Below, piece by piece: positions 39,736-48,533 of a stretch of 58,824 nt of DNA. Within the stretch, counting starts at the first letter, position 1, and each line of letters starts with the position of its first letter. The translations under genes and the position numbers were made by a program. The notes under the pieces are model-generated. The model had not been told where the DNA came from. It saw only the letters and a list, made by a program, of their open reading frames with translations, and made no database searches. The DNA lies in assembly GCA_019244185.1 (NCBI GenBank), contig JAFATB010000001.1, forward strand, positions 1-58,824. Reading direction: 5' to 3'. The stretch comes from Acidobacteriota bacterium. Its GTDB lineage: Bacteria > Acidobacteriota > Thermoanaerobaculia > Gp7-AA8.

Positions 39736-41370
39736 ATGCAATCGGCCCCGCCGCGCGCGGAAGTCACCGTCTACTCGCCGCTGTTCTCACCGTTCCGGCA
39801 GCCGCTCGATGGAGCTGCTGTCTCGATCGGCCGCGCGTCCGATTGCACGATCCCCATCAAAGACCGCTATCTCTCGCGCAAGCACGCCGAGATCGTCGCC
39901 GTCGACGGCGCGTGGATCCTCAAGGACCTCGGCAGCGCGAACGGCACGTACCTCAACGGCTCGCGCGTCGAACGCGATCAGACGCTCAAGACCGGCGATC
40001 GCATTCGCCTCGGCGATACGGAAATCGTCTTCGAAACGACCGATCGCAACACCGATCGCTTCATCGCCGTCGCCGACACCGGCGGCGCGAGCCCGACGAT
40101 CGCGATCCCCGTCCACGAAATCGCCGATCGCCCCGAGGAACAGGATGTCGCGCGGCTGCAAACGCTGACGCTCCTCGCGCGCGAGCTCATCGAAGACCGG
40201 CCGATGGAAGAGCTGTTCGGCTTCATCGTCGATCGCGTGATGGAGCACCTCCATCCGTCGCGCGCCGCGATCGCGCTCCTCGGCCCCGACGGCCGCTCCT
40301 TCACGAAAGTCGAAGTGCGCCGCCAGGACAAGAACGATGCATCCGAGCTCACGATCAGCCATACGCTGCTCACGGAGATCGTCGAGGAAAAGAAGGCGCT
40401 CGCGTTCGTCGACGTCAGCGTCGACGAAAAGCTCCGTTCCGCGCAGTCGATCATCATGCAGGGCATCCACTCGATCCTCTGCACGCCGCTGATGATCGGC
40501 AAAGCAGTCGTCGGCGTGCTGTATGTCGACTACCTCTTCACGCAACGCTCGATCTCCGAGGATGACGTGAGGCTCGTCGCGCAGATCGGCCGGTTCGCGG
40601 CGATCAAGCTCGAAACGACGCGGCTGCGCGAGGAAGCGATCGAGAAGCGGATCATGGACGAGGAGCTCAAGACCGCGTCCAACATCCAGCGGCGGCTGCT
40701 CCCCGTCGCGCCGACCGGCATCGACGGCTACACGTTCGTCGGCCGCAACCAGCCGTGCCGCACGGTCAGCGGCGATTATTACGATTTCGTCGTACGTCCC
40801 GACGGCAAGGTGTACTTCGTGATCGGCGACGTCAGCGGCAAGGGCGTGACCGCCGGTCTCATGATGGCCGGACTCCAGGTCGCGTTCCGCATCTTCTCGA
40901 AGAGCGATCCCGACCCGGCGTCGCTCGTCGGCCAGCTCAACGTCTCGCTCAAGGAAAACCTCCCGCAGTCGAAGTTCGTGACGCTCTTCGCGGGCAGGCT
41001 CGACACGAAGACCGGCGACATCGAGTACGTGAACGCGGGCCACACGCCGCCGCTGTGGCTGCGCGAGAACGAGATGGTCGAGCTGACGGAAACCGATCTG
41101 CTCCTCGGCGTCGTGACGCGCGCGCACTTCGAGAACCGGCACGTCCAGCTCGCGCCTGGCGACTCGCTCGTGCTATTCACGGACGGCGTCTCCGAGGCGC
41201 GCAACGCGGAGGGCGTGGAGCTCGGCGCGGAACTGCCGCTCGAGAACCTGCACGGCGTGAAAGCCGAGGCGATCGCGAGGGCGGTGAACGATGCGGTGCT
41301 CGCGCATGTCGGAGACGCGGAGAACCTCGACGACGACGTCACGCTGGTCGTCGTCAGCCGCAGCGCCTGA
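39736..41370 (+). CDS. FHA-GAF-PP2C (SpoIIE/RsbU-type) serine phosphatase
   Basis: FHA (IGR..SRKHA..DLGSANGTYLNG), GAF, PP2C (SGDYYD, GDVSGKG, FTDGVSEA, DDVT). Confidence 0.94.
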   Translation: MQSAPPRAEVTVYSPLFSPFRQPLDGAAVSIGRASDCTIPIKDRYLSRKHAEIVAVDGAWILKDLGSANGTYLNGSRVERDQTLKTGDRIRLGDTEIVFETTDRNTDRFIAVADTGGASPTIAIPVHEIADRPEEQDVARLQTLTLLARELIEDRPMEELFGFIVDRVMEHLHPSRAAIALLGPDGRSFTKVEVRRQDKNDASELTISHTLLTEIVEEKKALAFVDVSVDEKLRSAQSIIMQGIHSILCTPLMIGKAVVGVLYVDYLFTQRSISEDDVRLVAQIGRFAAIKLETTRLREEAIEKRIMDEELKTASNIQRRLLPVAPTGIDGYTFVGRNQPCRTVSGDYYDFVVRPDGKVYFVIGDVSGKGVTAGLMMAGLQVAFRIFSKSDPDPASLVGQLNVSLKENLPQSKFVTLFAGRLDTKTGDIEYVNAGHTPPLWLRENEMVELTETDLLLGVVTRAHFENRHVQLAPGDSLVLFTDGVSEARNAEGVELGAELPLENLHGVKAEAIARAVNDAVLAHVGDAENLDDDVTLVVVSRSA

Positions 41371-41400
41371 GGAACGCGCTTTGCGTTGAAGGCAGCGCCG

Positions 41401-42666
41401 ATGGCTCACCTCGTTCGCGCGCTCCGCCACCGCAACTACCGGCTCTTTTTCGGAGGGCAAGGCGTTTCGCTGGTGGGCACGTGGATCACGCGCATCGCCA
41501 CGAGCTGGCTCGTCTATCGCCTCACCGGCTCCGAGCTCCTCCTCGGCGTCGTCGGCTTCGCGGGTCAGATCCCGATGCTCATCCTCGCGCCGTTCGCGGG
41601 CGTGCTCGTCGACCGCTGGAATCGCCACAGGATTCTCGTCGTGACGCAGGTGCTCTCCGCGCTGCAGTCGCTCGCGCTGGCGGTGCTCGCGCTGCGCGGC
41701 ATCATCACCGTGGCCGAAGTAATCGCGCTGCAGGTCGCGCAAGGCATCATCAACTCGTTCGATACGCCGGCGCGGCAGGCGTTCGTCGTGGAGATGGTCG
41801 ACGATCGCGCCGATCTGCCGAATGCGATCGCGCTGAACTCGTCGATGTTCAACGGCTCGCGCATCATCGGCCCGTCGATCGGCGGCGTGATGATCGCCGC
41901 CATGGGCGAAGGATGGTGCTTCGCCGTCGATGCGATCTCGTACGTCGCGGTGATCCTCTCGCTCGTCGCGATGCGCCTTCCGGAAGTCGCGCCGCAGACG
42001 CGCAAGTCGCGTCTCGCGGAGGAGCTGCACACCGGCTTCCGCTATGTGCTCGACTTCCCGCCCGTGCGCGCGTTGCTCGTGCAGGTCGCGCTCGTCGGCA
42101 CGCTCGGCATGCCGTACGCGGTGCTGATGCCGGTCATCGCGTCGAAGGTCCTGCACGGCGGACCGCACACGCTCGGCCTGCTCATGACCGCCTCCGGCGC
42201 GGGCGCGCTGATCGGCACGGCGTATCTCGCCTCGCGGCACACGGTGGTTGGCCTCGGCAAGGTGATCGTTGTCGCGACGGCGGGGCTCAGCGTCGGCCTG
42301 ATCGCGTTCTCGCTCTCGCGCAACCTCGCCATGTCGCTCATCGTGCTGCCGCTCGTCGGCGCGGGCATGATGCTGCAGGCGGCATCGGCGAACACGATCC
42401 TGCAGACGCTCGTCGACGAAGATCTGCGCGGCCGCGTGATGGCGTTCTACACGGTTGCGGTGCTCGGCACGCAGCCGATCGGCAGTCTGGTGGCCGGCAT
42501 CGCCGCCGACCGCATCGGCGCCCCGAAAACGATCCTCGCCGGCGCCATCTGCTGCCTCGGCGCCGGCCTCTGGTTCGCGATGCAGCGCGGCGAGCTCGCA
42601 AAGCACGTGCGCCCGATCTACATCGAGCGCGGGATTCTGCCGCCGCTCGAGGAGACGACGAACTAA
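41401..42666 (+). CDS. MFS transporter
   Basis: ALRHRNYRLFF, GVLVDRWNRHR, PARQAFV, LRGRVM; ~12 TMs. Confidence 0.93.
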   Translation: MAHLVRALRHRNYRLFFGGQGVSLVGTWITRIATSWLVYRLTGSELLLGVVGFAGQIPMLILAPFAGVLVDRWNRHRILVVTQVLSALQSLALAVLALRGIITVAEVIALQVAQGIINSFDTPARQAFVVEMVDDRADLPNAIALNSSMFNGSRIIGPSIGGVMIAAMGEGWCFAVDAISYVAVILSLVAMRLPEVAPQTRKSRLAEELHTGFRYVLDFPPVRALLVQVALVGTLGMPYAVLMPVIASKVLHGGPHTLGLLMTASGAGALIGTAYLASRHTVVGLGKVIVVATAGLSVGLIAFSLSRNLAMSLIVLPLVGAGMMLQAASANTILQTLVDEDLRGRVMAFYTVAVLGTQPIGSLVAGIAADRIGAPKTILAGAICCLGAGLWFAMQRGELAKHVRPIYIERGILPPLEETTN

Positions 42667-43808
42667 CTCAATCCCTTTGCCGCGAGCCAGCCCGCGAATC
42701 GCTCCGCAGCTTCCGCCGCGAGGAGATACGCCACCGGTTCCGCGGGCAGCCCGCGCGCGAAAAACCGCCCGCCTGCACTCCAGTACAAAGCGATGCCGCC
42801 GTCCCCTTTGGCAATGATGTCGAAGACGTCTCCGTCGCCGACGCGGCCGCCCGCGTCGATCGCCGAGGCAACGACATGCTTCGCATCGAACTCGCCGATC
42901 GCGATCGCGCCGTCCTGCGTCGTTCCCGCCGCAACAAACGTGTTTCCGCTCGCGATGAGGCGAAGGTTCTCGATTGCTGCACTCGCGAGGACCGCGTGCA
43001 CGTGAGTCGGCGTGGCGTCGCCGTTGTTCGGCAGCACGAGTCCCTCGGCACCGGAAGCACTCGCCGCAACGATGCCGACCGTACCCGCGTCATCCGCCGC
43101 CATCGCGATGGCGCTGTAGGTCGTGTTCTGCGGGAACGGCAAACGCGTCGTCGCCGCCTCGCCACTGCTGAACGTGTACAGCGTGACCGCGGACGTGCCT
43201 TCGAGAAATGCGACCGCGACGCGCTCTTCGCCGAGCCGCACGGCCTGCCAGCGTGACCGCTCGATCTGCTCGGCACGCCCGCGCCGGATCGCACCCAATT
43301 CCTTGACGCCCGCGGCTGTGACGAGAAAGGCGCGCAGATCCGAGTCGTCGCCGTTCATCGCCTTGAGGAGCACGCCGCCAGGCTCGCTCCCGAACAGCGG
43401 TAGCCAGCCGCGCGTATCGCGCCGGTCCTCCTCCGCGTACAACGTCGCGTTGGGACGAGCCTCGCTGGCGAGACTGATCACGAATCGCCGGCTCTGCGTC
43501 CCGCACCGCGTGTACCACCACTGCTCGTCAGGCGGCGTGACGAGCGCTTCGCCCCAGCACGGCGACCATTCCTCCGGCACCTGCAGCAGCGTCTGCGCAT
43601 CATCCATCACGACGCGGCGCGCGCCCCATCGGATCGCATTGCCCTCGACGACGATCCGGTGCTGATGCGCCTCCGCAATCGCGAGCACGCCGTCCGCCGT
43701 CATCTCGATCGCACGGCGATCGTGCAGATGCGCGACGTCACGCGCGAGCGGGCCGGCGCACGTCGCGAACGGCGCCAGCCCGAGGAAGGCGAAGAGGATT
43801 TTAAGCAC
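42663..43808 (-). CDS. Secreted hypothetical protein (381 aa, beta-rich)
   Basis: GTG 43808 overlaps upstream peptide stop by 8 nt; signal-like MLKILFAFLGLAPFATCAG; atypical codon usage. Confidence 0.65.
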   Translation of the reverse strand: MLKILFAFLGLAPFATCAGPLARDVAHLHDRRAIEMTADGVLAIAEAHQHRIVVEGNAIRWGARRVVMDDAQTLLQVPEEWSPCWGEALVTPPDEQWWYTRCGTQSRRFVISLASEARPNATLYAEEDRRDTRGWLPLFGSEPGGVLLKAMNGDDSDLRAFLVTAAGVKELGAIRRGRAEQIERSRWQAVRLGEERVAVAFLEGTSAVTLYTFSSGEAATTRLPFPQNTTYSAIAMAADDAGTVGIVAASASGAEGLVLPNNGDATPTHVHAVLASAAIENLRLIASGNTFVAAGTTQDGAIAIGEFDAKHVVASAIDAGGRVGDGDVFDIIAKGDGGIALYWSAGGRFFARGLPAEPVAYLLAAEAAERFAGWLAAKGLS

Positions 43809-44115
43809 GCCGCAATGTGAAGCCACCGGTGGGCTTCTGACCGCTTCGCGGCTCCGCCTTGTCGGGGAGAGGTCCCGACGGCTTTCGCGGGAGCAAATCG
43901 CCGCGCTGCGACGGCGCAGAAAGCGGCTCGATGCATCCGCTGTCGTGCACGCATGGCTCGCCGAATCCGCCGTAGCAGTAGAACCCACCATTGGGAAGTC
44001 CCGACACGCAACCGCGGTGTGCGCCGCCTCCGCCCGGGCAGTCTTCACACGCAAATACAGACGGCGCGGCAACCAACATGAGGATCCCGAAGATGGGCCA
44101 GAACGTTCGTTTCAT
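43801..44115 (-). CDS. Secreted Cys-rich peptide precursor (104 aa: signal, 6-Cys core, follower)
   Basis: AAGGAG SD, ATGA overlap with upstream stop; MKRTFWPIFGILMLVAAPSVFA|CEDC...C...C...C...C. Buried in a longer spurious track ORF. Confidence 0.8.
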   Translation of the reverse strand: MKRTFWPIFGILMLVAAPSVFACEDCPGGGGAHRGCVSGLPNGGFYCYGGFGEPCVHDSGCIEPLSAPSQRGDLLPRKPSGPLPDKAEPRSGQKPTGGFTLRRA

Positions 44116-47100
44116 CGCGAATTCTCCTTCTCTCGTTTCGGCTCGGTGTCTCCACCTCGCAGCTCGATCTGCTTTCGCTCTCCGGCATGCAGCGTCACTT
44201 CGGCGATGGGCTCGAGAAGTCCCGACGTCAGCGTCACCCAATCCTGCAGGGACGCGACGCGCATCACCTTCCATGTATCGGCGGCCACTTGCGGAATCAC
44301 CAGCGCGGCCGAGCGGGCATCGCCGCGTAGATACCGCGTCGCGTTCAGCAGCCGGCCGTCGGTCGACAGCAGCCAGAAGGTCATCAGCCGATTGACGTTC
44401 GGTACGTGACTGACGATCAGTTCCGCGGAATCGGCAGGAAGCGAGAGGTCCGCGTTCTGACCGGCACGCAGACGATAGGCCTGTGCACCGCTCGACGATG
44501 CGACACTGCAGAGACTCTCTCCCGCCGAGGTTGAGGCTTCGAGCTCGAAGGTGCCGTCGTCCGCGGTCGTCGCGGAGCTCATGGACGCGATCGCACCGGG
44601 GCTCACGCACGTGACGATCGCGCCCGCTACGGGAACGCCAGTGACATCGCGGAGCGTGCCGCGGAGTGAGCGCGTGTCGGAAAGACGAAGATGCACTTCG
44701 GCAGAAGAGGCACCCACGCGCACCTCGCTGGCAGCAGCGAGTCCGTGCTCCGCGTCGGTTGCAGTGACGGTCCACATTCCTGCGGCGAGATTCGCGATGT
44801 CCGCGTCTCCGCGTTCATCGGTCGCCACCTCGACCGTGTCCTGCTTCTCCATGCCGAGGTTCGTGTCGGCGAGTTGGCTCGCGGTTACGATCGCACCTGC
44901 AGCCGGCGAATCGCCGCGTCGGACATCGACATGAATCGAACCGGCCGGCAGCACGACATTCACCGGCTGCGCGGGGTTCTCGAATGACAGCGCCCCGACC
45001 CAGAGGTACCGTGCCGGCTCGAACGTCCGCATGTCGACGAGATAGCGATCGAGCCGCGGAAGGATGACCTGGAACTCGCCATTCGCGTCGGTCGGAACAG
45101 ACGGCACCGTGTCGGTGAGCTGCACGCCGCGGATGTCGAGATTGCCTCTGATTGGCTTGCCGTTGAGCGTGACGCGGCCGGTGAAGACATACGGCTCGAG
45201 AACGACGTCGAGATGCTTTGTCTCGGCGGGGTCGAGATGGATGCTCTTCCCGACGACAGGCTGTACGTTCTTGCCGGTAGAGATCAGCGCGGTGATACGC
45301 CAGTCGCCGCTGTGGAGGCCATGAAACGTCACTGGGCCGCTCGCCGAGAAGGGCTCGCGCCGCTGGTCGTGCGAACCTGCATCACCATCGGGATCGAGCA
45401 CGAGCAGACGGATCGCGCTCTGCGGAAAGCGCTCGCGGAAACTCGCATCGAGCTCCGCACGGACCACGAGCGTCGCCGGACGGTCGATCCGGAGCGGATC
45501 GATCGTCGTTTCGGCGCCGGGCAGAACGCGTCGTTCGACCGTCGCCGATGTGCCGTCCGGCGTCGTCGCCGACATGGCGAGCATCCGGTGCGCAGGTAGA
45601 TCACCGATGTATACCCAACCATCGGGACCCGTCGCCCCGTGCGCAAGCGGGCGCTCATCCGCGTACGCGGCGGTGCTCTTGGCGCGAACGTCGACGGTCG
45701 CGTCGGCGATTGCGTGTCCTTCGTCGTCGGTCACATGAATCGCCGCCTTACCGCTCTGGAACAGCGTGAACTCGCCGAGCCATGTCGTTTGTGCAGTCGG
45801 CAACGATCGGGCGAGCGTCAACGGGCCGAATGGAGTGAAACGCGCCACGAGACCCGCGCAATTGGCCGGAGCATCGAAGCGAATCGTCCCGTCTTTGGCG
45901 ACGGACACCGGCACGTCGATCCCCGCGGAGCCCTTGCAGTCGTGAAACGCGAGAACGCCGGCTCGCGGAATCGCAACGCTGCCGTCGCTCGATCGGATCT
46001 GCATTCCTCCGCGCGCCAGGTCAACGACGACGCCTTCCATCGTATGCGCGTCCATCGGCGTGGCATCGGTCGCACTTCCGACGAGGTCGTTCGCCGTCGT
46101 GCCGACAAAGGGTCCGCGCTCCGCCGGCGCGGCGATGTGCAACAAGACGCCGCCACTCGTCTCCTCGAACGCGTGACGCACCGGCGCGCCGGACGCATCG
46201 GTGACCTTCAGACCGTCGAGCTCGTCGCCGGTGCTTCCATTGAGATAGAGCGCCGATGACGAGATCTTGTCGTTGGTCATCGAAGGTAGCGCAACGGACA
46301 CCTCGCGTTTCGCGTCCGCGGCAAGCGTCACGGTCGTGAGGAGTGATGCTGCCGTGAATGTTTTCGGGTCGACCGGCTGCGCATAGATCGAGTAGTCACC
46401 GGCAGGCAGATTCGCCCAGGTCAGCGACGGCGCGCGCGCGACGCGCGCCCAATACTGACTCTGCCAGCCTGCGGGAATCGTCGTCACGATCGGAGCTTCC
46501 GCGGCAACGAGAGTAACGACCATGTGCGGGTCGGGGCGGTCGACGTGGAGCACGAGTTGCGCTCCTCGTTTCAAGGTGAACGCAACGTTCGAAGCACTGT
46601 CGTGTTCGTGCCACGCCGTCGCGTATCCGGCCGCCTCGGCGCTCAACGCGCTTTTCTCGCCGGCAGGCAACGCCAGCGACCAGGTGCCGTCTGCGGCAGT
46701 CGTCGTCTGCCATTGATTGCCGATGAACGCTCTCGCCATTTCGCTCAGCTGGCCGAGCGGCGCGTCGACACGCGCATCGACGGCGGAGACGGTCGCATGT
46801 GGAACCGAATGTCCGTCACTATCGCGGACCGTTCCATTGAATGTGACGGCGGGCGGTAGCGTCACTGAGACATCGCGCGATTCCGCGAAGAAATACGACC
46901 TGTCCTTCAGGAAATTGCCGTCGGCGGTTGCCGCGATCACCCGATAAACGCCTGGCGAGACGCGAAAGGTCGTCTGTCCGTTACGCGCGATCGTTTCCGC
47001 AAGCGGCTGCGACCACGGCCGCCACGGCGGCAGCAGCGCGACGTAAGCCGCATCGACAGGCTTTCCGGGAGAAAGAATCGAGACATGAAGCTCGATCGGC

Positions 47101-47207
47101 GCAGGAGTCGTGGATGCGGGAGCGGCCGATCCCGGCAGCGCGTTGACCATCGCGACCGTGAAGAAGAGCCAACGCGGGCAAGCACGACGCAACCAGCGCG
47201 AGGACAT
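44112..47207 (-). CDS. Large secreted protein with multiple carboxypeptidase-regulatory-like (Ig/prealbumin-fold) repeats
   Basis: Repeats such as GTVRDSDGHSVPHATV..TAADGTW, VTDDEGHAIADATV..TGPDG, GRVTLNGKP..TDANGEF, GTLRDVTGVPVAGAIV..TADDGTF. Confidence 0.82.
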   Translation of the reverse strand: MSSRWLRRACPRWLFFTVAMVNALPGSAAPASTTPAPIELHVSILSPGKPVDAAYVALLPPWRPWSQPLAETIARNGQTTFRVSPGVYRVIAATADGNFLKDRSYFFAESRDVSVTLPPAVTFNGTVRDSDGHSVPHATVSAVDARVDAPLGQLSEMARAFIGNQWQTTTAADGTWSLALPAGEKSALSAEAAGYATAWHEHDSASNVAFTLKRGAQLVLHVDRPDPHMVVTLVAAEAPIVTTIPAGWQSQYWARVARAPSLTWANLPAGDYSIYAQPVDPKTFTAASLLTTVTLAADAKREVSVALPSMTNDKISSSALYLNGSTGDELDGLKVTDASGAPVRHAFEETSGGVLLHIAAPAERGPFVGTTANDLVGSATDATPMDAHTMEGVVVDLARGGMQIRSSDGSVAIPRAGVLAFHDCKGSAGIDVPVSVAKDGTIRFDAPANCAGLVARFTPFGPLTLARSLPTAQTTWLGEFTLFQSGKAAIHVTDDEGHAIADATVDVRAKSTAAYADERPLAHGATGPDGWVYIGDLPAHRMLAMSATTPDGTSATVERRVLPGAETTIDPLRIDRPATLVVRAELDASFRERFPQSAIRLLVLDPDGDAGSHDQRREPFSASGPVTFHGLHSGDWRITALISTGKNVQPVVGKSIHLDPAETKHLDVVLEPYVFTGRVTLNGKPIRGNLDIRGVQLTDTVPSVPTDANGEFQVILPRLDRYLVDMRTFEPARYLWVGALSFENPAQPVNVVLPAGSIHVDVRRGDSPAAGAIVTASQLADTNLGMEKQDTVEVATDERGDADIANLAAGMWTVTATDAEHGLAAASEVRVGASSAEVHLRLSDTRSLRGTLRDVTGVPVAGAIVTCVSPGAIASMSSATTADDGTFELEASTSAGESLCSVASSSGAQAYRLRAGQNADLSLPADSAELIVSHVPNVNRLMTFWLLSTDGRLLNATRYLRGDARSAALVIPQVAADTWKVMRVASLQDWVTLTSGLLEPIAEVTLHAGERKQIELRGGDTEPKREKENSR

Positions 47208-47220
47208 GTCGTGTCCGCGC

Positions 47221-47250
47221 AGCTTAGAGGAAAGATGGAAAAACGGTCAA
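47221..47250 (-). promoter_or_regulatory. sigma70 promoter of the three-gene peptide operon
   Basis: TTGACC-N18-TAAGCT in an AT-rich intergenic gap, 13 nt before ATG 47207. Confidence 0.6.
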
Positions 47251-47269
47251 ACGCGATAAAGGCGTTCCG

Positions 47270-47632
47270 TCACTCCAGCCCCTCCTCCGCCAGCCACACC
47301 TCGATCGCGCGCGTCGCCTGGTCGTTCTTGAAGTTGAAGAACGAGCGTTCGATGCGGCGGTCCTCGGAGAGCACGGCTCGAAAGGCGTTGGCGTCGGGGG
47401 CGGCGCGGGCGAGCTCGTTGCGCATGGGGGACGGCGGGAGTTTGTCGACGAAGAGGCGGCGGTCTTCTTCTTCGGACTCGGGGGTGCGGGTGGGGATGCG
47501 GCGGAAGCGCGCGGCGTCGCCGGGCGCGTCGGCGTCGAGCGGGAGGTCGATGATGTCGCCGGTCTCGAGGTCGAGCCAGTGCGCGAGCGCGACGCCGAGG
47601 TAAGCGACTTGCAGTCCGTCGAGGTCGATCAT
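47270..47632 (-). CDS. UPF0158-family protein
   Basis: IDLDGLQ..HWLDLETGDII, AFRAVL, WLAEEGL pattern; start set to avoid overlap with murQ. Confidence 0.65.
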   Translation of the reverse strand: MIDLDGLQVAYLGVALAHWLDLETGDIIDLPLDADAPGDAARFRRIPTRTPESEEEDRRLFVDKLPPSPMRNELARAAPDANAFRAVLSEDRRIERSFFNFKNDQATRAIEVWLAEEGLE

Positions 47633-47666
47633 GAGCGGTTCCGTCGCGATGATATCTTCAAGCGCC

Positions 47667-48533
47667 ATGAGCTCGGACCGGCTCGAGGCCAGCCTCGACA
47701 TCGATCAGCGGCCGGCGATCGACATCGTGCGCATCATCCAGCAGCAGGACGCGACGATCGCCGGCGCGGTCGCGGCGCAGGCCGAGCGCATCGCGCATGC
47801 TGTCGACGAAATCGTCGAGCGCATGCGTCACGGCGGGCGGATGATCTACGCCGGCGCGGGCACGAGCGGGCGCATCGCCATGCTCGACGCGTCGGAGCTG
47901 CCGCCGACGTACGGCATCGACGCGGATCGCGTGCGCGTGCTCATGGCCGGCGGCACGCGCGCGTTCTTCGAAGCGGCTGAGGGCGCGGAAGACGACGAGG
48001 ACGCGGCCATCGACGCGGTGAACGCAAACGTGACCGCCGAGGATGCGCTAGTCGGAGTCGCGGCCTCGGGGACCACGCCGTTCACCGTCGCCGCCGTGCG
48101 CCGCGCGAACATGCTCGGCGCGCTCACCGTCGCGGTCACGAATCGCGCGAACACGCCGCTCGCGCAGCACGCGGACATCCCCATCGTCGTCGAGACCGGC
48201 GCGGAAGTGATCATGGGCTCGAGCCGCATGAAAGCCGGCACCGCGCAGAAGCTCGTCCTGAACACGCTGTCGACAGCGGTCATGATCCGCCTTGGCCGCG
48301 TCCACTCGAACCTGATGATCGACATGCCGGCCACGAACGCAAAGCTGCGCGATCGCGCGGTGCGGATGGTGGAACTCGCCGCCGGCGTTCCGCGTCCCGT
48401 CGCGATGAACGCGATTCGCGAGGCTGACGGAAACGTGCGTCTCGCCAGCGTCATCGCCAAACGGCGCGTCGGCGTCGACGAGGCGCGCGCGCTGCTGGAG
48501 AACGCGAGCCTGCGGGAGGTGCTGCACTCGTGA
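47667..48533 (+). CDS. murQ: N-acetylmuramic acid 6-phosphate etherase
   Basis: GAGTSGR, LDASELPPTYG, AEGAED, ASGTTPF, RMKAGTAQKLVLN. Confidence 0.95.
   Translation: MSSDRLEASLDIDQRPAIDIVRIIQQQDATIAGAVAAQAERIAHAVDEIVERMRHGGRMIYAGAGTSGRIAMLDASELPPTYGIDADRVRVLMAGGTRAFFEAAEGAEDDEDAAIDAVNANVTAEDALVGVAASGTTPFTVAAVRRANMLGALTVAVTNRANTPLAQHADIPIVVETGAEVIMGSSRMKAGTAQKLVLNTLSTAVMIRLGRVHSNLMIDMPATNAKLRDRAVRMVELAAGVPRPVAMNAIREADGNVRLASVIAKRRVGVDEARALLENASLREVLHS

Follow-up and report, generated by a model that had tools for sequence, protein, structure and literature searches.

What could three exported proteins, encoded by overlapping genes and matching no described system, be doing together in an acidobacterium? 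The question is raised by an operon on the minus strand (positions 42663 to 47207) of a 58,824-nucleotide stretch of DNA, hereafter the window, from an Acidobacteriota bacterium of the class Thermoanaerobaculia (assembly GCA_019244185.1, contig JAFATB010000001.1; the genome is called G000 below). In order of translation, it encodes a giant secreted repeat protein of 1031 residues (44112-47207), an exported six-Cys mini-protein of 104 residues (43801-44115, stop included) and a third protein of 381 residues (42663-43808, with a GTG start at 43808 and a stop at 42663), all read from open reading frames (ORFs) and their translations. Our tentative answer, to which we give rather less than an even chance, is that the three form a single extracytoplasmic assembly, associated with the envelope and made of a rod, a cystine mini-protein and a propeller-like lipoprotein.

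The arrangement of the genes was examined at the nucleotide level. The TGA of the giant gene and the ATG of the peptide gene overlap as ATGA (44115-44112), and an overlap of 8 nt (GTGCTTAA) joins the peptide stop to the GTG start of the third gene. The three coupled genes that the initial annotation had proposed could be reproduced from the ORFs and translations. A Shine-Dalgarno sequence, AAGGAG (44124-44129, minus strand), was read 8 nt 5' of the peptide ATG, within the end of the giant gene. Overlaps of this kind would imply tight coupling, which suits co-produced subunits. On the upstream side, a terminator-like hairpin with a T-run (47249-47267, minus strand, found by motif scan) follows a gene of 143 residues, divides it from the operon and sets the upstream limit of the latter. 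A sigma70-like promoter had also been claimed; it was not recovered, as a consensus scan of 42300-47800 returned none and inspection by eye gave TTGACC, a spacing of 17 nt and a poor -10.

The anatomy first described for the peptide, a 22-residue signal ending in VFA, a 39-residue six-Cys core and a 43-residue Pro/basic tail, matches the translation exactly. The signal peptide, read by eye (residues 1-22, MKRTFWPIFGILMLVAAPSVFA; 44050-44115, like the following features on the minus strand), ends in VFA and leaves Cys23 as the predicted mature N-terminus; an AxA followed by Cys is conserved among the relatives of type 1 defined below. The core, delimited by alignment and AlphaFold2 (residues 23-61; 43933-44049), has the spacing C-x2-C-x9-C-x10-C-x7-C-x5-C, and C23, C36, C47, C55 and C61 are invariant, C26 nearly so, in 149 family members. 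A variable Pro/Gly/basic linker comes next (residues 62-94; 43834-43932), predicted as disordered from its low column conservation and a predicted local distance difference test score (pLDDT) of about 50-66. The type-1 alignment defines a C-terminal motif, P-x-x-G-F-x-L-R (residues 95-104; 43804-43833), of which P95, G98, F99 and L101 do not vary among 16 type-1 peptides. The AlphaFold2 model built from a 149-row alignment has an overall pLDDT of 73, which rises to 80-90 in the Cys head and falls to about 50 in the linker, the tail lying at 62-71, and predicts five short strands in the head. A search for similar folds with this model returned 0 matches with Foldseek against the PDB and 0 at Z>=2 with VIA-align against 48,161 chains. 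At the sequence level, the best match of the family profile in the PDB was a Notch-like chain with a non-significant E-value of 0.1, and the best scores in a protein atlas, 0.76-0.78, were at chance level (a DUF2282 cluster scored 0.78).

Neither the window peptide nor 11 further members could be assigned to a Pfam or NCBIfam family. The nearest matches below threshold, each for one relative, were TIGR01653 lactococcin_972 (E 0.16, 12.3 bits for a cut-off of 32.1) and a PSI-domain (E 0.018). Searching 61 relatives with the single sequence gave three credible matches, in G022 (E 5e-9), G029 (8e-5) and G033 (0.025), and each of these peptides is encoded directly after a homologue of the giant. 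A match in G030 was dropped as an unrelated protein having only a signal peptide in common. The 61 genomes include the unpublished G002, G024 and G042, which gave chance-level matches only; no conclusion of this study rests on these three alone. With a four-sequence profile, 18 proteins were detected among 5.8 billion, and with a 25-sequence profile searched against 1.84 billion cluster representatives (clusters at 50% identity), 175 were detected at E<=1e-3, 54 of them at E<=1e-10. Nearly all of the 175 are 100-125 residues long and aligned end to end.

A set of 149 sequences was retained for classification, 13 having been dropped as long, cut or devoid of the pattern (P0116, P0126, P0131, P0132, P0140, P0147, P0149, P0150, P0156-P0158, P0160 and P0165) and the fragments P0008, P0020 and P0021 being excluded as well. 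The contigs of origin of P0007 and P0017 both measure 4003 bp and may be one and the same. Subtypes were assigned by tail motif. Type 1, the window's kind (39/149), follows the pattern CExC...SG...C[YW]GGFG..C, then a linker and GFxL. Type 2 is the largest (76/149) and combines HCx[RK]C... with PLAxEYxVASVERLDEP...VASLE, while type 3 (13/149) has 9-10 Cys and the tail W[RQ]LARVEV. The 21 others include five type-1-like sequences and seven referred to as type 4, in which a type-1 head is joined to an acidic Trp/Cys-rich end. Within type 2, conservation peaks in the tail PLAxEYxVASVERLDEP, and the inter-Cys loops vary freely. By eye the type-2 tail segment ETRVASLE may resemble a TonB box, a putative likeness that we set aside.

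Nei-Gojobori ratios of nonsynonymous to synonymous substitution rates (dN/dS) were calculated for seven orthologous type-2 pairs. They ranged from 0.17 to 0.49 for the head, 0.18 to 0.75 for the head without its Cys, 0.15 to 0.76 for the tail and 0.23 to 0.32 for the partner gene, head, tail and partner all remaining below 1 in 7/7 pairs. Computed over few codons, these values indicate purifying selection throughout, with an apparently relaxed head. The peptide therefore stands as a real, conserved and exported Cys-rich gene product, as first proposed, on the strength of its 175 cluster representatives, of dN/dS below 1 in related copies and of its canonical Shine-Dalgarno sequence.

The family is confined to one lineage in the genomes searched. 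In a sample of the phylum, scored on 11 candidates per genome only, matches were found in 2 of 401 genomes, namely G000 and another member of its taxonomic family. In a sample of that family, which belongs to Thermoanaerobaculia, 36 of 121 genomes match at E<=1e-4, and 22 of 31 genomes of the genus do so besides G000; no member was found in the genomes searched outside the family. The matches of the family sample occupy 77 places, with 0-6 copies per genome, some in tandem; G000 itself holds a single copy. Tandem or near-tandem genes were seen at G467:C9 24694-25478, G028:C5 1105288-1106803, G495:C642 593-2734 and G027:C78 69930-73380. Two scans of metagenome contigs with peptide-family queries returned no relatives, a search of sequencing runs found the sequence in 5 DNA data sets, with rhizosphere and rock as habitats, and in none of RNA, and reads on two stretches gave identical fragments or short chance pieces only, with no variants.

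The giant protein starts with a signal-like segment, followed by about ten beta-sandwich domains of the CarboxypepD_reg/Ig-like kind and by a C-terminal stretch without any family match. It matches PF13620 CarboxypepD_reg over 3 stretches at 99.9 bits, for a gathering cut-off of 32.3, with further weak matches to Big_1, DUF4198 and SpaA, and its homologues in loci L022, L031 and L091 likewise match PF13620. Full-length homologues are 36-46% identical, and two pairs of Cys, C423/C449 and C867/C900, are conserved. The sole solved chain matched by the giant profile in the PDB was NOMO2 (9c7v_B), a nodal modulator and subunit of the BOS complex, weakly, at E 6e-4 over residues 789-895. NOMO is a eukaryotic protein resident in the endoplasmic reticulum, with a long luminal rod of the same kind of beta-sandwich domains, and we know of no Cys-rich small partner for it; the likeness is one of common domain type, not of common system. 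Acidobacterial and Bacteroidetes CarboxypepD_reg proteins are mostly N-terminal extensions of TonB-dependent receptors, with which the giant shares PF13620 domains scoring above the gathering threshold. Unlike those receptors, it has no plug or barrel, the repeats are its sole recognised domains and its gene pairs with that of a small Cys-rich protein.

To what extent this pairing recurs was calculated on fetched loci. A script located the peptide ORF in 19 of 30 loci, with a PF13620 protein directly adjacent on the same strand in 15 of the 19; adding the hand-checked loci of G000, G029 and G033 brings the count to 18 of 22. In the four exceptions the neighbour was either miscalled as short ORFs (L040, L042 and L050) or cut at a contig end (L060). 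As a background, the 5.3-Mb genome contains 48 PF13620 matches in about 31 open frames. The recurring linkage to carboxypeptidase-regulatory-like repeat proteins foreseen in the initial annotation is thus borne out. The subtype of the peptide also goes with the architecture of its partner. Peptides of types 1 and 4 lie 3' of a giant of about 1030-1056 residues, type 2 peptides lie 5' of a protein of about 460-470 residues (3' of it in L055), and type 3 peptides lie beside proteins of at least 649 residues, some of them cut by the locus end. A type-2 partner of 462 residues is colinear with giant residues 626-1012, at 21% identity (pairwise E 1e-4), and the C-terminal 450 or so residues of the giant therefore appear as a core shared by the partners. 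No enzyme, transporter or regulator is conserved across the loci.

Some variants were observed besides. In L024 (G008:C70, 6439-10455), the gene of a secreted protein of the S9 prolyl-oligopeptidase family precedes a type-2 peptide gene and its partner, with 15 nt in between, and therefore looks like part of a three-gene unit of different make-up; the same S9-family protein was seen upstream, by eye only, in L014 (G004). In L028 (G016:C340, 5681-9832), a type-2 peptide follows, instead of a CarboxypepD_reg protein, a 1383-residue protein combining DUF3857, a transglutaminase core and TPR. Elsewhere in G000, an open frame of about 7,300 residues on contig C6 (around 216575-245380), far larger than the giant, has several CarboxypepD_reg matches, and one of 1390 residues on contig C15 (41117-44488) has at least 11 in tandem.

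The third protein has no Pfam or NCBIfam match. A hydrophobic stretch precedes an invariant Cys17, in the contexts FATC, FVTC, LVSC and LASC (pattern ...[FL][AV][ST]C-A), and a pair formed by Cys84 and Cys102 is conserved. The lipobox consensus is [LVI][ASTVI][GAS]-C, with which S at position -1 agrees and T does not. Foldseek run with the structural model returned prolyl oligopeptidase, TolB, WD40/kelch-type proteins and lectins among the matches listed; all 50 matches among those listed are of propeller type, at TM-scores of only 0.21-0.36. The protein atlas pointed to BNR_4/SBBP clusters at 0.88-0.89. We tentatively regard the third protein as all-beta, propeller-like and lipoprotein-like. 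Its gene family was detected in 18 of the 121 genomes and 20 loci were fetched; both counts include the unpublished G024 (L104). A peptide-family ORF and a giant homologue lie directly upstream in 10 of the 20 loci, spread over 4 genera, while 2 loci have the giant only and 8 have neither, two of the latter, L104 among them, having less than 320 nt of upstream DNA. An additional trio, of type 4, was found in the locus L091 of a named metagenome-assembled genome, with a giant 28% identical over 1050 residues (E 1e-100) and a third protein recognised with an hhalign probability of 97.3%.

How could the three proteins work together? We propose that the 1031-residue protein would be a rod of beta-sandwich domains, the 381-residue protein a membrane-tethered, propeller-like lipoprotein and the 82-residue mature peptide a stoichiometric small subunit. 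The latter would consist of a compact cystine-stabilised head, a flexible Pro-rich linker and a short strand-like GFxLR motif, and its head, its tail or both may dock on the conserved C-terminal 450 or so residues of the rod. It would be the head, through its variable loops, that meets the outside world, be it a ligand, a surface or a neighbour cell. The build of the peptide, its constant rod neighbour, the agreement between subtype and partner and the translational coupling are best fitted by such a multi-part extracytoplasmic assembly. All three products bear export signals, as judged by eye. Their conserved Cys are even in number, which would suit an oxidising compartment, and two DsbA-like genes are present in the genome. 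The scaffold or display role first suggested for the giant is compatible with these data, binding being putative. By analogy, cohesin-dockerin pairs and donor-strand pili likewise associate a repeated beta-sandwich protein with a small protein bearing a strand-like motif on a linker; unlike them, the loci contain no cohesin, dockerin, chaperone or usher families, and docking is putative here.

Several observations weigh against an assembly of this kind. Binding is putative, and gene adjacency can arise for reasons besides complex formation. No anchor or sorting signal could be recognised in the giant. The locus of G022 comprises the giant and the peptide without a third gene, all type-2 and type-3 modules lack that gene, and in the 8 of 20 loci mentioned above it stands alone in other contexts. 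In the window, the third protein has T at lipobox position -1, which is non-canonical, and its model is poor (pLDDT 49.5, with about 20 strands and a C-terminal helix). The type-4 peptides do not have the GFxL tail and nevertheless keep the giant and the third gene, so that the tail can be neither a universal docking element nor the sole contact. Finally, neither DsbB nor VKOR was found in the genome, and for this reason we can only infer the disulfides. A candidate way of tying the tail to docking was the expectation that tail-less type-4 peptides lose the rod neighbour; as they keep it, the type-4 comparison fails to isolate the role of the tail. Complex prediction with the mature peptide (residues 23-104, 16-row alignment) and residues 560-1031 of the giant (7-row alignment) gave no answer (score 0.02) and counts as evidence for neither side.

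Since no DsbB or VKOR was found, the thiols could also stay reduced, and the peptide might then be a periplasmic metal-binding or redox mini-protein, like BufA2 but unmodified enzymatically, with the rod acting as a carrier or having nothing to do with metal handling. The BufA2 (BUF_6/12Cys) bufferins are described as Sec-exported metallophores of the ribosomally synthesised and post-translationally modified peptide class, with a six-Cys core of 61 residues, whose precursors are genetically tied to, and defined by, an MNIO (DUF692) and a DUF2063 partner (PMC11626156). The window family resembles them by its N-terminal Sec signal, its six conserved Cys within a core of some 40-60 residues and its periplasmic destination, features that are not specific alone. 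In addition, at the mature N-terminus, type 1 has a conserved Glu behind its first Cys and type 2 a conserved His in front of it. The family differs from bufferins by its constant CarboxypepD_reg rod neighbour, which metal handling leaves unexplained, and by its setting, as no linked MNIO or DUF2063 was found in the scanned loci, 48 neighbour sequences in all, or in the window flanks. The single MNIO gene (PF05114) of the genome lies on another contig (C12, 10603-11295), and no obvious Cys-rich precursor was noticed beside it in a quick look. No metal-resistance genes are found nearby, and the peptide has no match to the DUF2282 profile or to any other Pfam or NCBIfam family; BufA2 was set apart by its description only. 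On balance, we consider metal or redox function distinctly improbable.

The surroundings of the operon were then compared between relatives. By synteny, the MFS_3 transporter gene (41386-42666), convergent with the operon and abutting it, forms together with the three genes a variable segment (41371-47269) located between a FHA-GAF-PP2C gene (39736-41370) and the pair made of the 143-residue gene (p143) and MurQ. This divergent pair is present in 35 of 35 genomes of the genus. The loci of 29 relatives were fetched, of which two were too short; in 15 of the remaining 27, the FHA-GAF-PP2C gene lies less than 1.5 kb from the 143-residue gene, and less than 500 nt in 11, the same gap being 5.9 kb in G000 and filled by the MFS_3 gene and the operon. 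Both the 35/35 and the 15/27 counts include unpublished genomes, G024 (L083) being positive and G002 (L070) negative in the latter. At the same spot, eight relatives have a different secreted protein and five have other genes. The type-1 modules of G022, G029 and G033 are elsewhere in their genomes, and the MFS_3 gene is not beside the related loci. As listed, the 5' ends of the divergent 143-residue and MurQ ORFs overlap by 71 nt (47631-47701); relatives align only from residue 16 of MurQ and from about residue 15-24 of p143, and both true starts are probably further in.

The composition of the operon was also analysed. GC3, the GC fraction of third codon positions, stands at 0.75 in the giant gene, 0.71 in the peptide gene and 0.82 in the third, with 0.91 and 0.90 for the flanking MFS and p143 genes. 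Relative to a crude set of 2349 long ORFs with a median of 0.87, the giant falls at about the 10th percentile. The GC content of the window is 0.64-0.65 over 44-47 kb versus 0.67-0.69 beside. The excess of A/T-ending codons noted by the initial annotation is confirmed in so far as the operon lies under its flanks in GC3, the giant being atypical but not extreme. No flanking direct or inverted repeats marking a mobile element were seen in a repeat search. From its variable spot, the operon is regarded as an accessory module, and no relative was found outside the taxonomic family in the genomes searched. It can be called foreign only as an accessory module that moves inside a single bacterial family.

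The variable spot and the lower GC3 are also what one may expect if the peptide were a diffusible antagonistic or defensin-like toxin (a bacteriocin), its neighbours being helper and immunity proteins. The patchy distribution over genomes, the 0-6 copies, the tandem duplicates and the fixed Cys frame with hypervariable loops behind a conserved signal peptide go in the same direction, as do the non-Cys head positions evolving faster than the partner (dN/dS 0.18-0.75 vs 0.23-0.32). Precursors of conotoxins and defensins also combine a conserved signal, a fixed Cys framework, hypervariable inter-Cys loops and a conserved segment outside the core; unlike them, the window family is bacterial, its conserved segment is C-terminal, and fold and sequence searches gave no match. 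On the other side, the best bacteriocin match is the non-significant one of a single relative to lactococcin_972, dN/dS stays below 1 in every pair, and no locus contains an outer-membrane exporter, an ABC gene or a small membrane immunity protein. The constant partner is a secreted beta-sandwich rod of 460-1030 residues, unlike the bacteriocin immunity proteins known to us. PADLOC and PHROGs detected 0 families among five proteins scanned, including all three operon products. We found no evidence in favour of the defensin- or toxin-like activity initially put forward. Nor is there anything to mark the third protein as an immunity protein; it resembles, tentatively, a beta-propeller-type lipoprotein and is missing from G022 and from all type-2 and type-3 modules. 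A toxin appears unlikely to us.

The conserved tails suggest still another role, in which the peptide would be a precursor or ligand: the tail would be a cleaved recognition or pro-sequence and the freed head a signal sensed by neighbours, a protease substrate or an inhibitor. Better conservation of the tail than of the head in type 2, as in leader and follower peptides, agrees with this, and so do the S9-family gene next to the peptide gene of G008 (and, by eye only, in G004) and, weakly, the prolyl-oligopeptidase propellers among the best fold matches of the third protein. However, an S9 gene does not accompany the peptide genes in general, the loci share no conserved regulator, kinase or sigma/anti-sigma gene and the window operon encodes no protease domain. 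We consider such a precursor very improbable.

Returning to the assembly of rod, mini-protein and lipoprotein, we also considered a broader version of it. Here the operon would belong to an undescribed, lineage-specific envelope apparatus, in which an Ig-like rod, often with a propeller lipoprotein, carries fast-diversifying cystine mini-proteins as interchangeable recognition or attack heads, serving adhesion, kin discrimination or contact-dependent antagonism. With four tail types and up to 6 copies per genome, these heads would be, by analogy, a bacterial counterpart of conotoxin-like diversification with a dedicated scaffold. We judge this broader version rather unlikely.

That no described system corresponds to the operon, as had been noted at the outset, is supported by the absence of match in Pfam, NCBIfam, PADLOC, PHROGs, the PDB sequence and fold searches of the peptide and the literature searched. 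In particular, full-text literature on Cys-rich or CarboxypepD_reg proteins of Thermoanaerobaculia and Acidobacteriota yielded nothing on the peptide family. Newness here means that no described family or system fits; it does not imply a new mechanism. Thermoanaerobaculia are widespread, mostly uncultured Acidobacteria of soil and rhizosphere, whose surface biology is essentially unknown. A peptide family of 175 clusters at 50% identity, absent from the curated libraries searched and with a recurrent partner gene, therefore offers definite proteins for expression and testing. Should the trio be simply a structural component of the envelope, it would be a lineage marker of modest interest. Should the heads bind metal without MNIO modification, the family would extend the known variety of Sec-exported Cys-rich metallophore-like proteins. 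And if they act in recognition or attack, as modules either displayed or released, they would represent a new bacterial way to diversify a small disulfide-rich binding domain.

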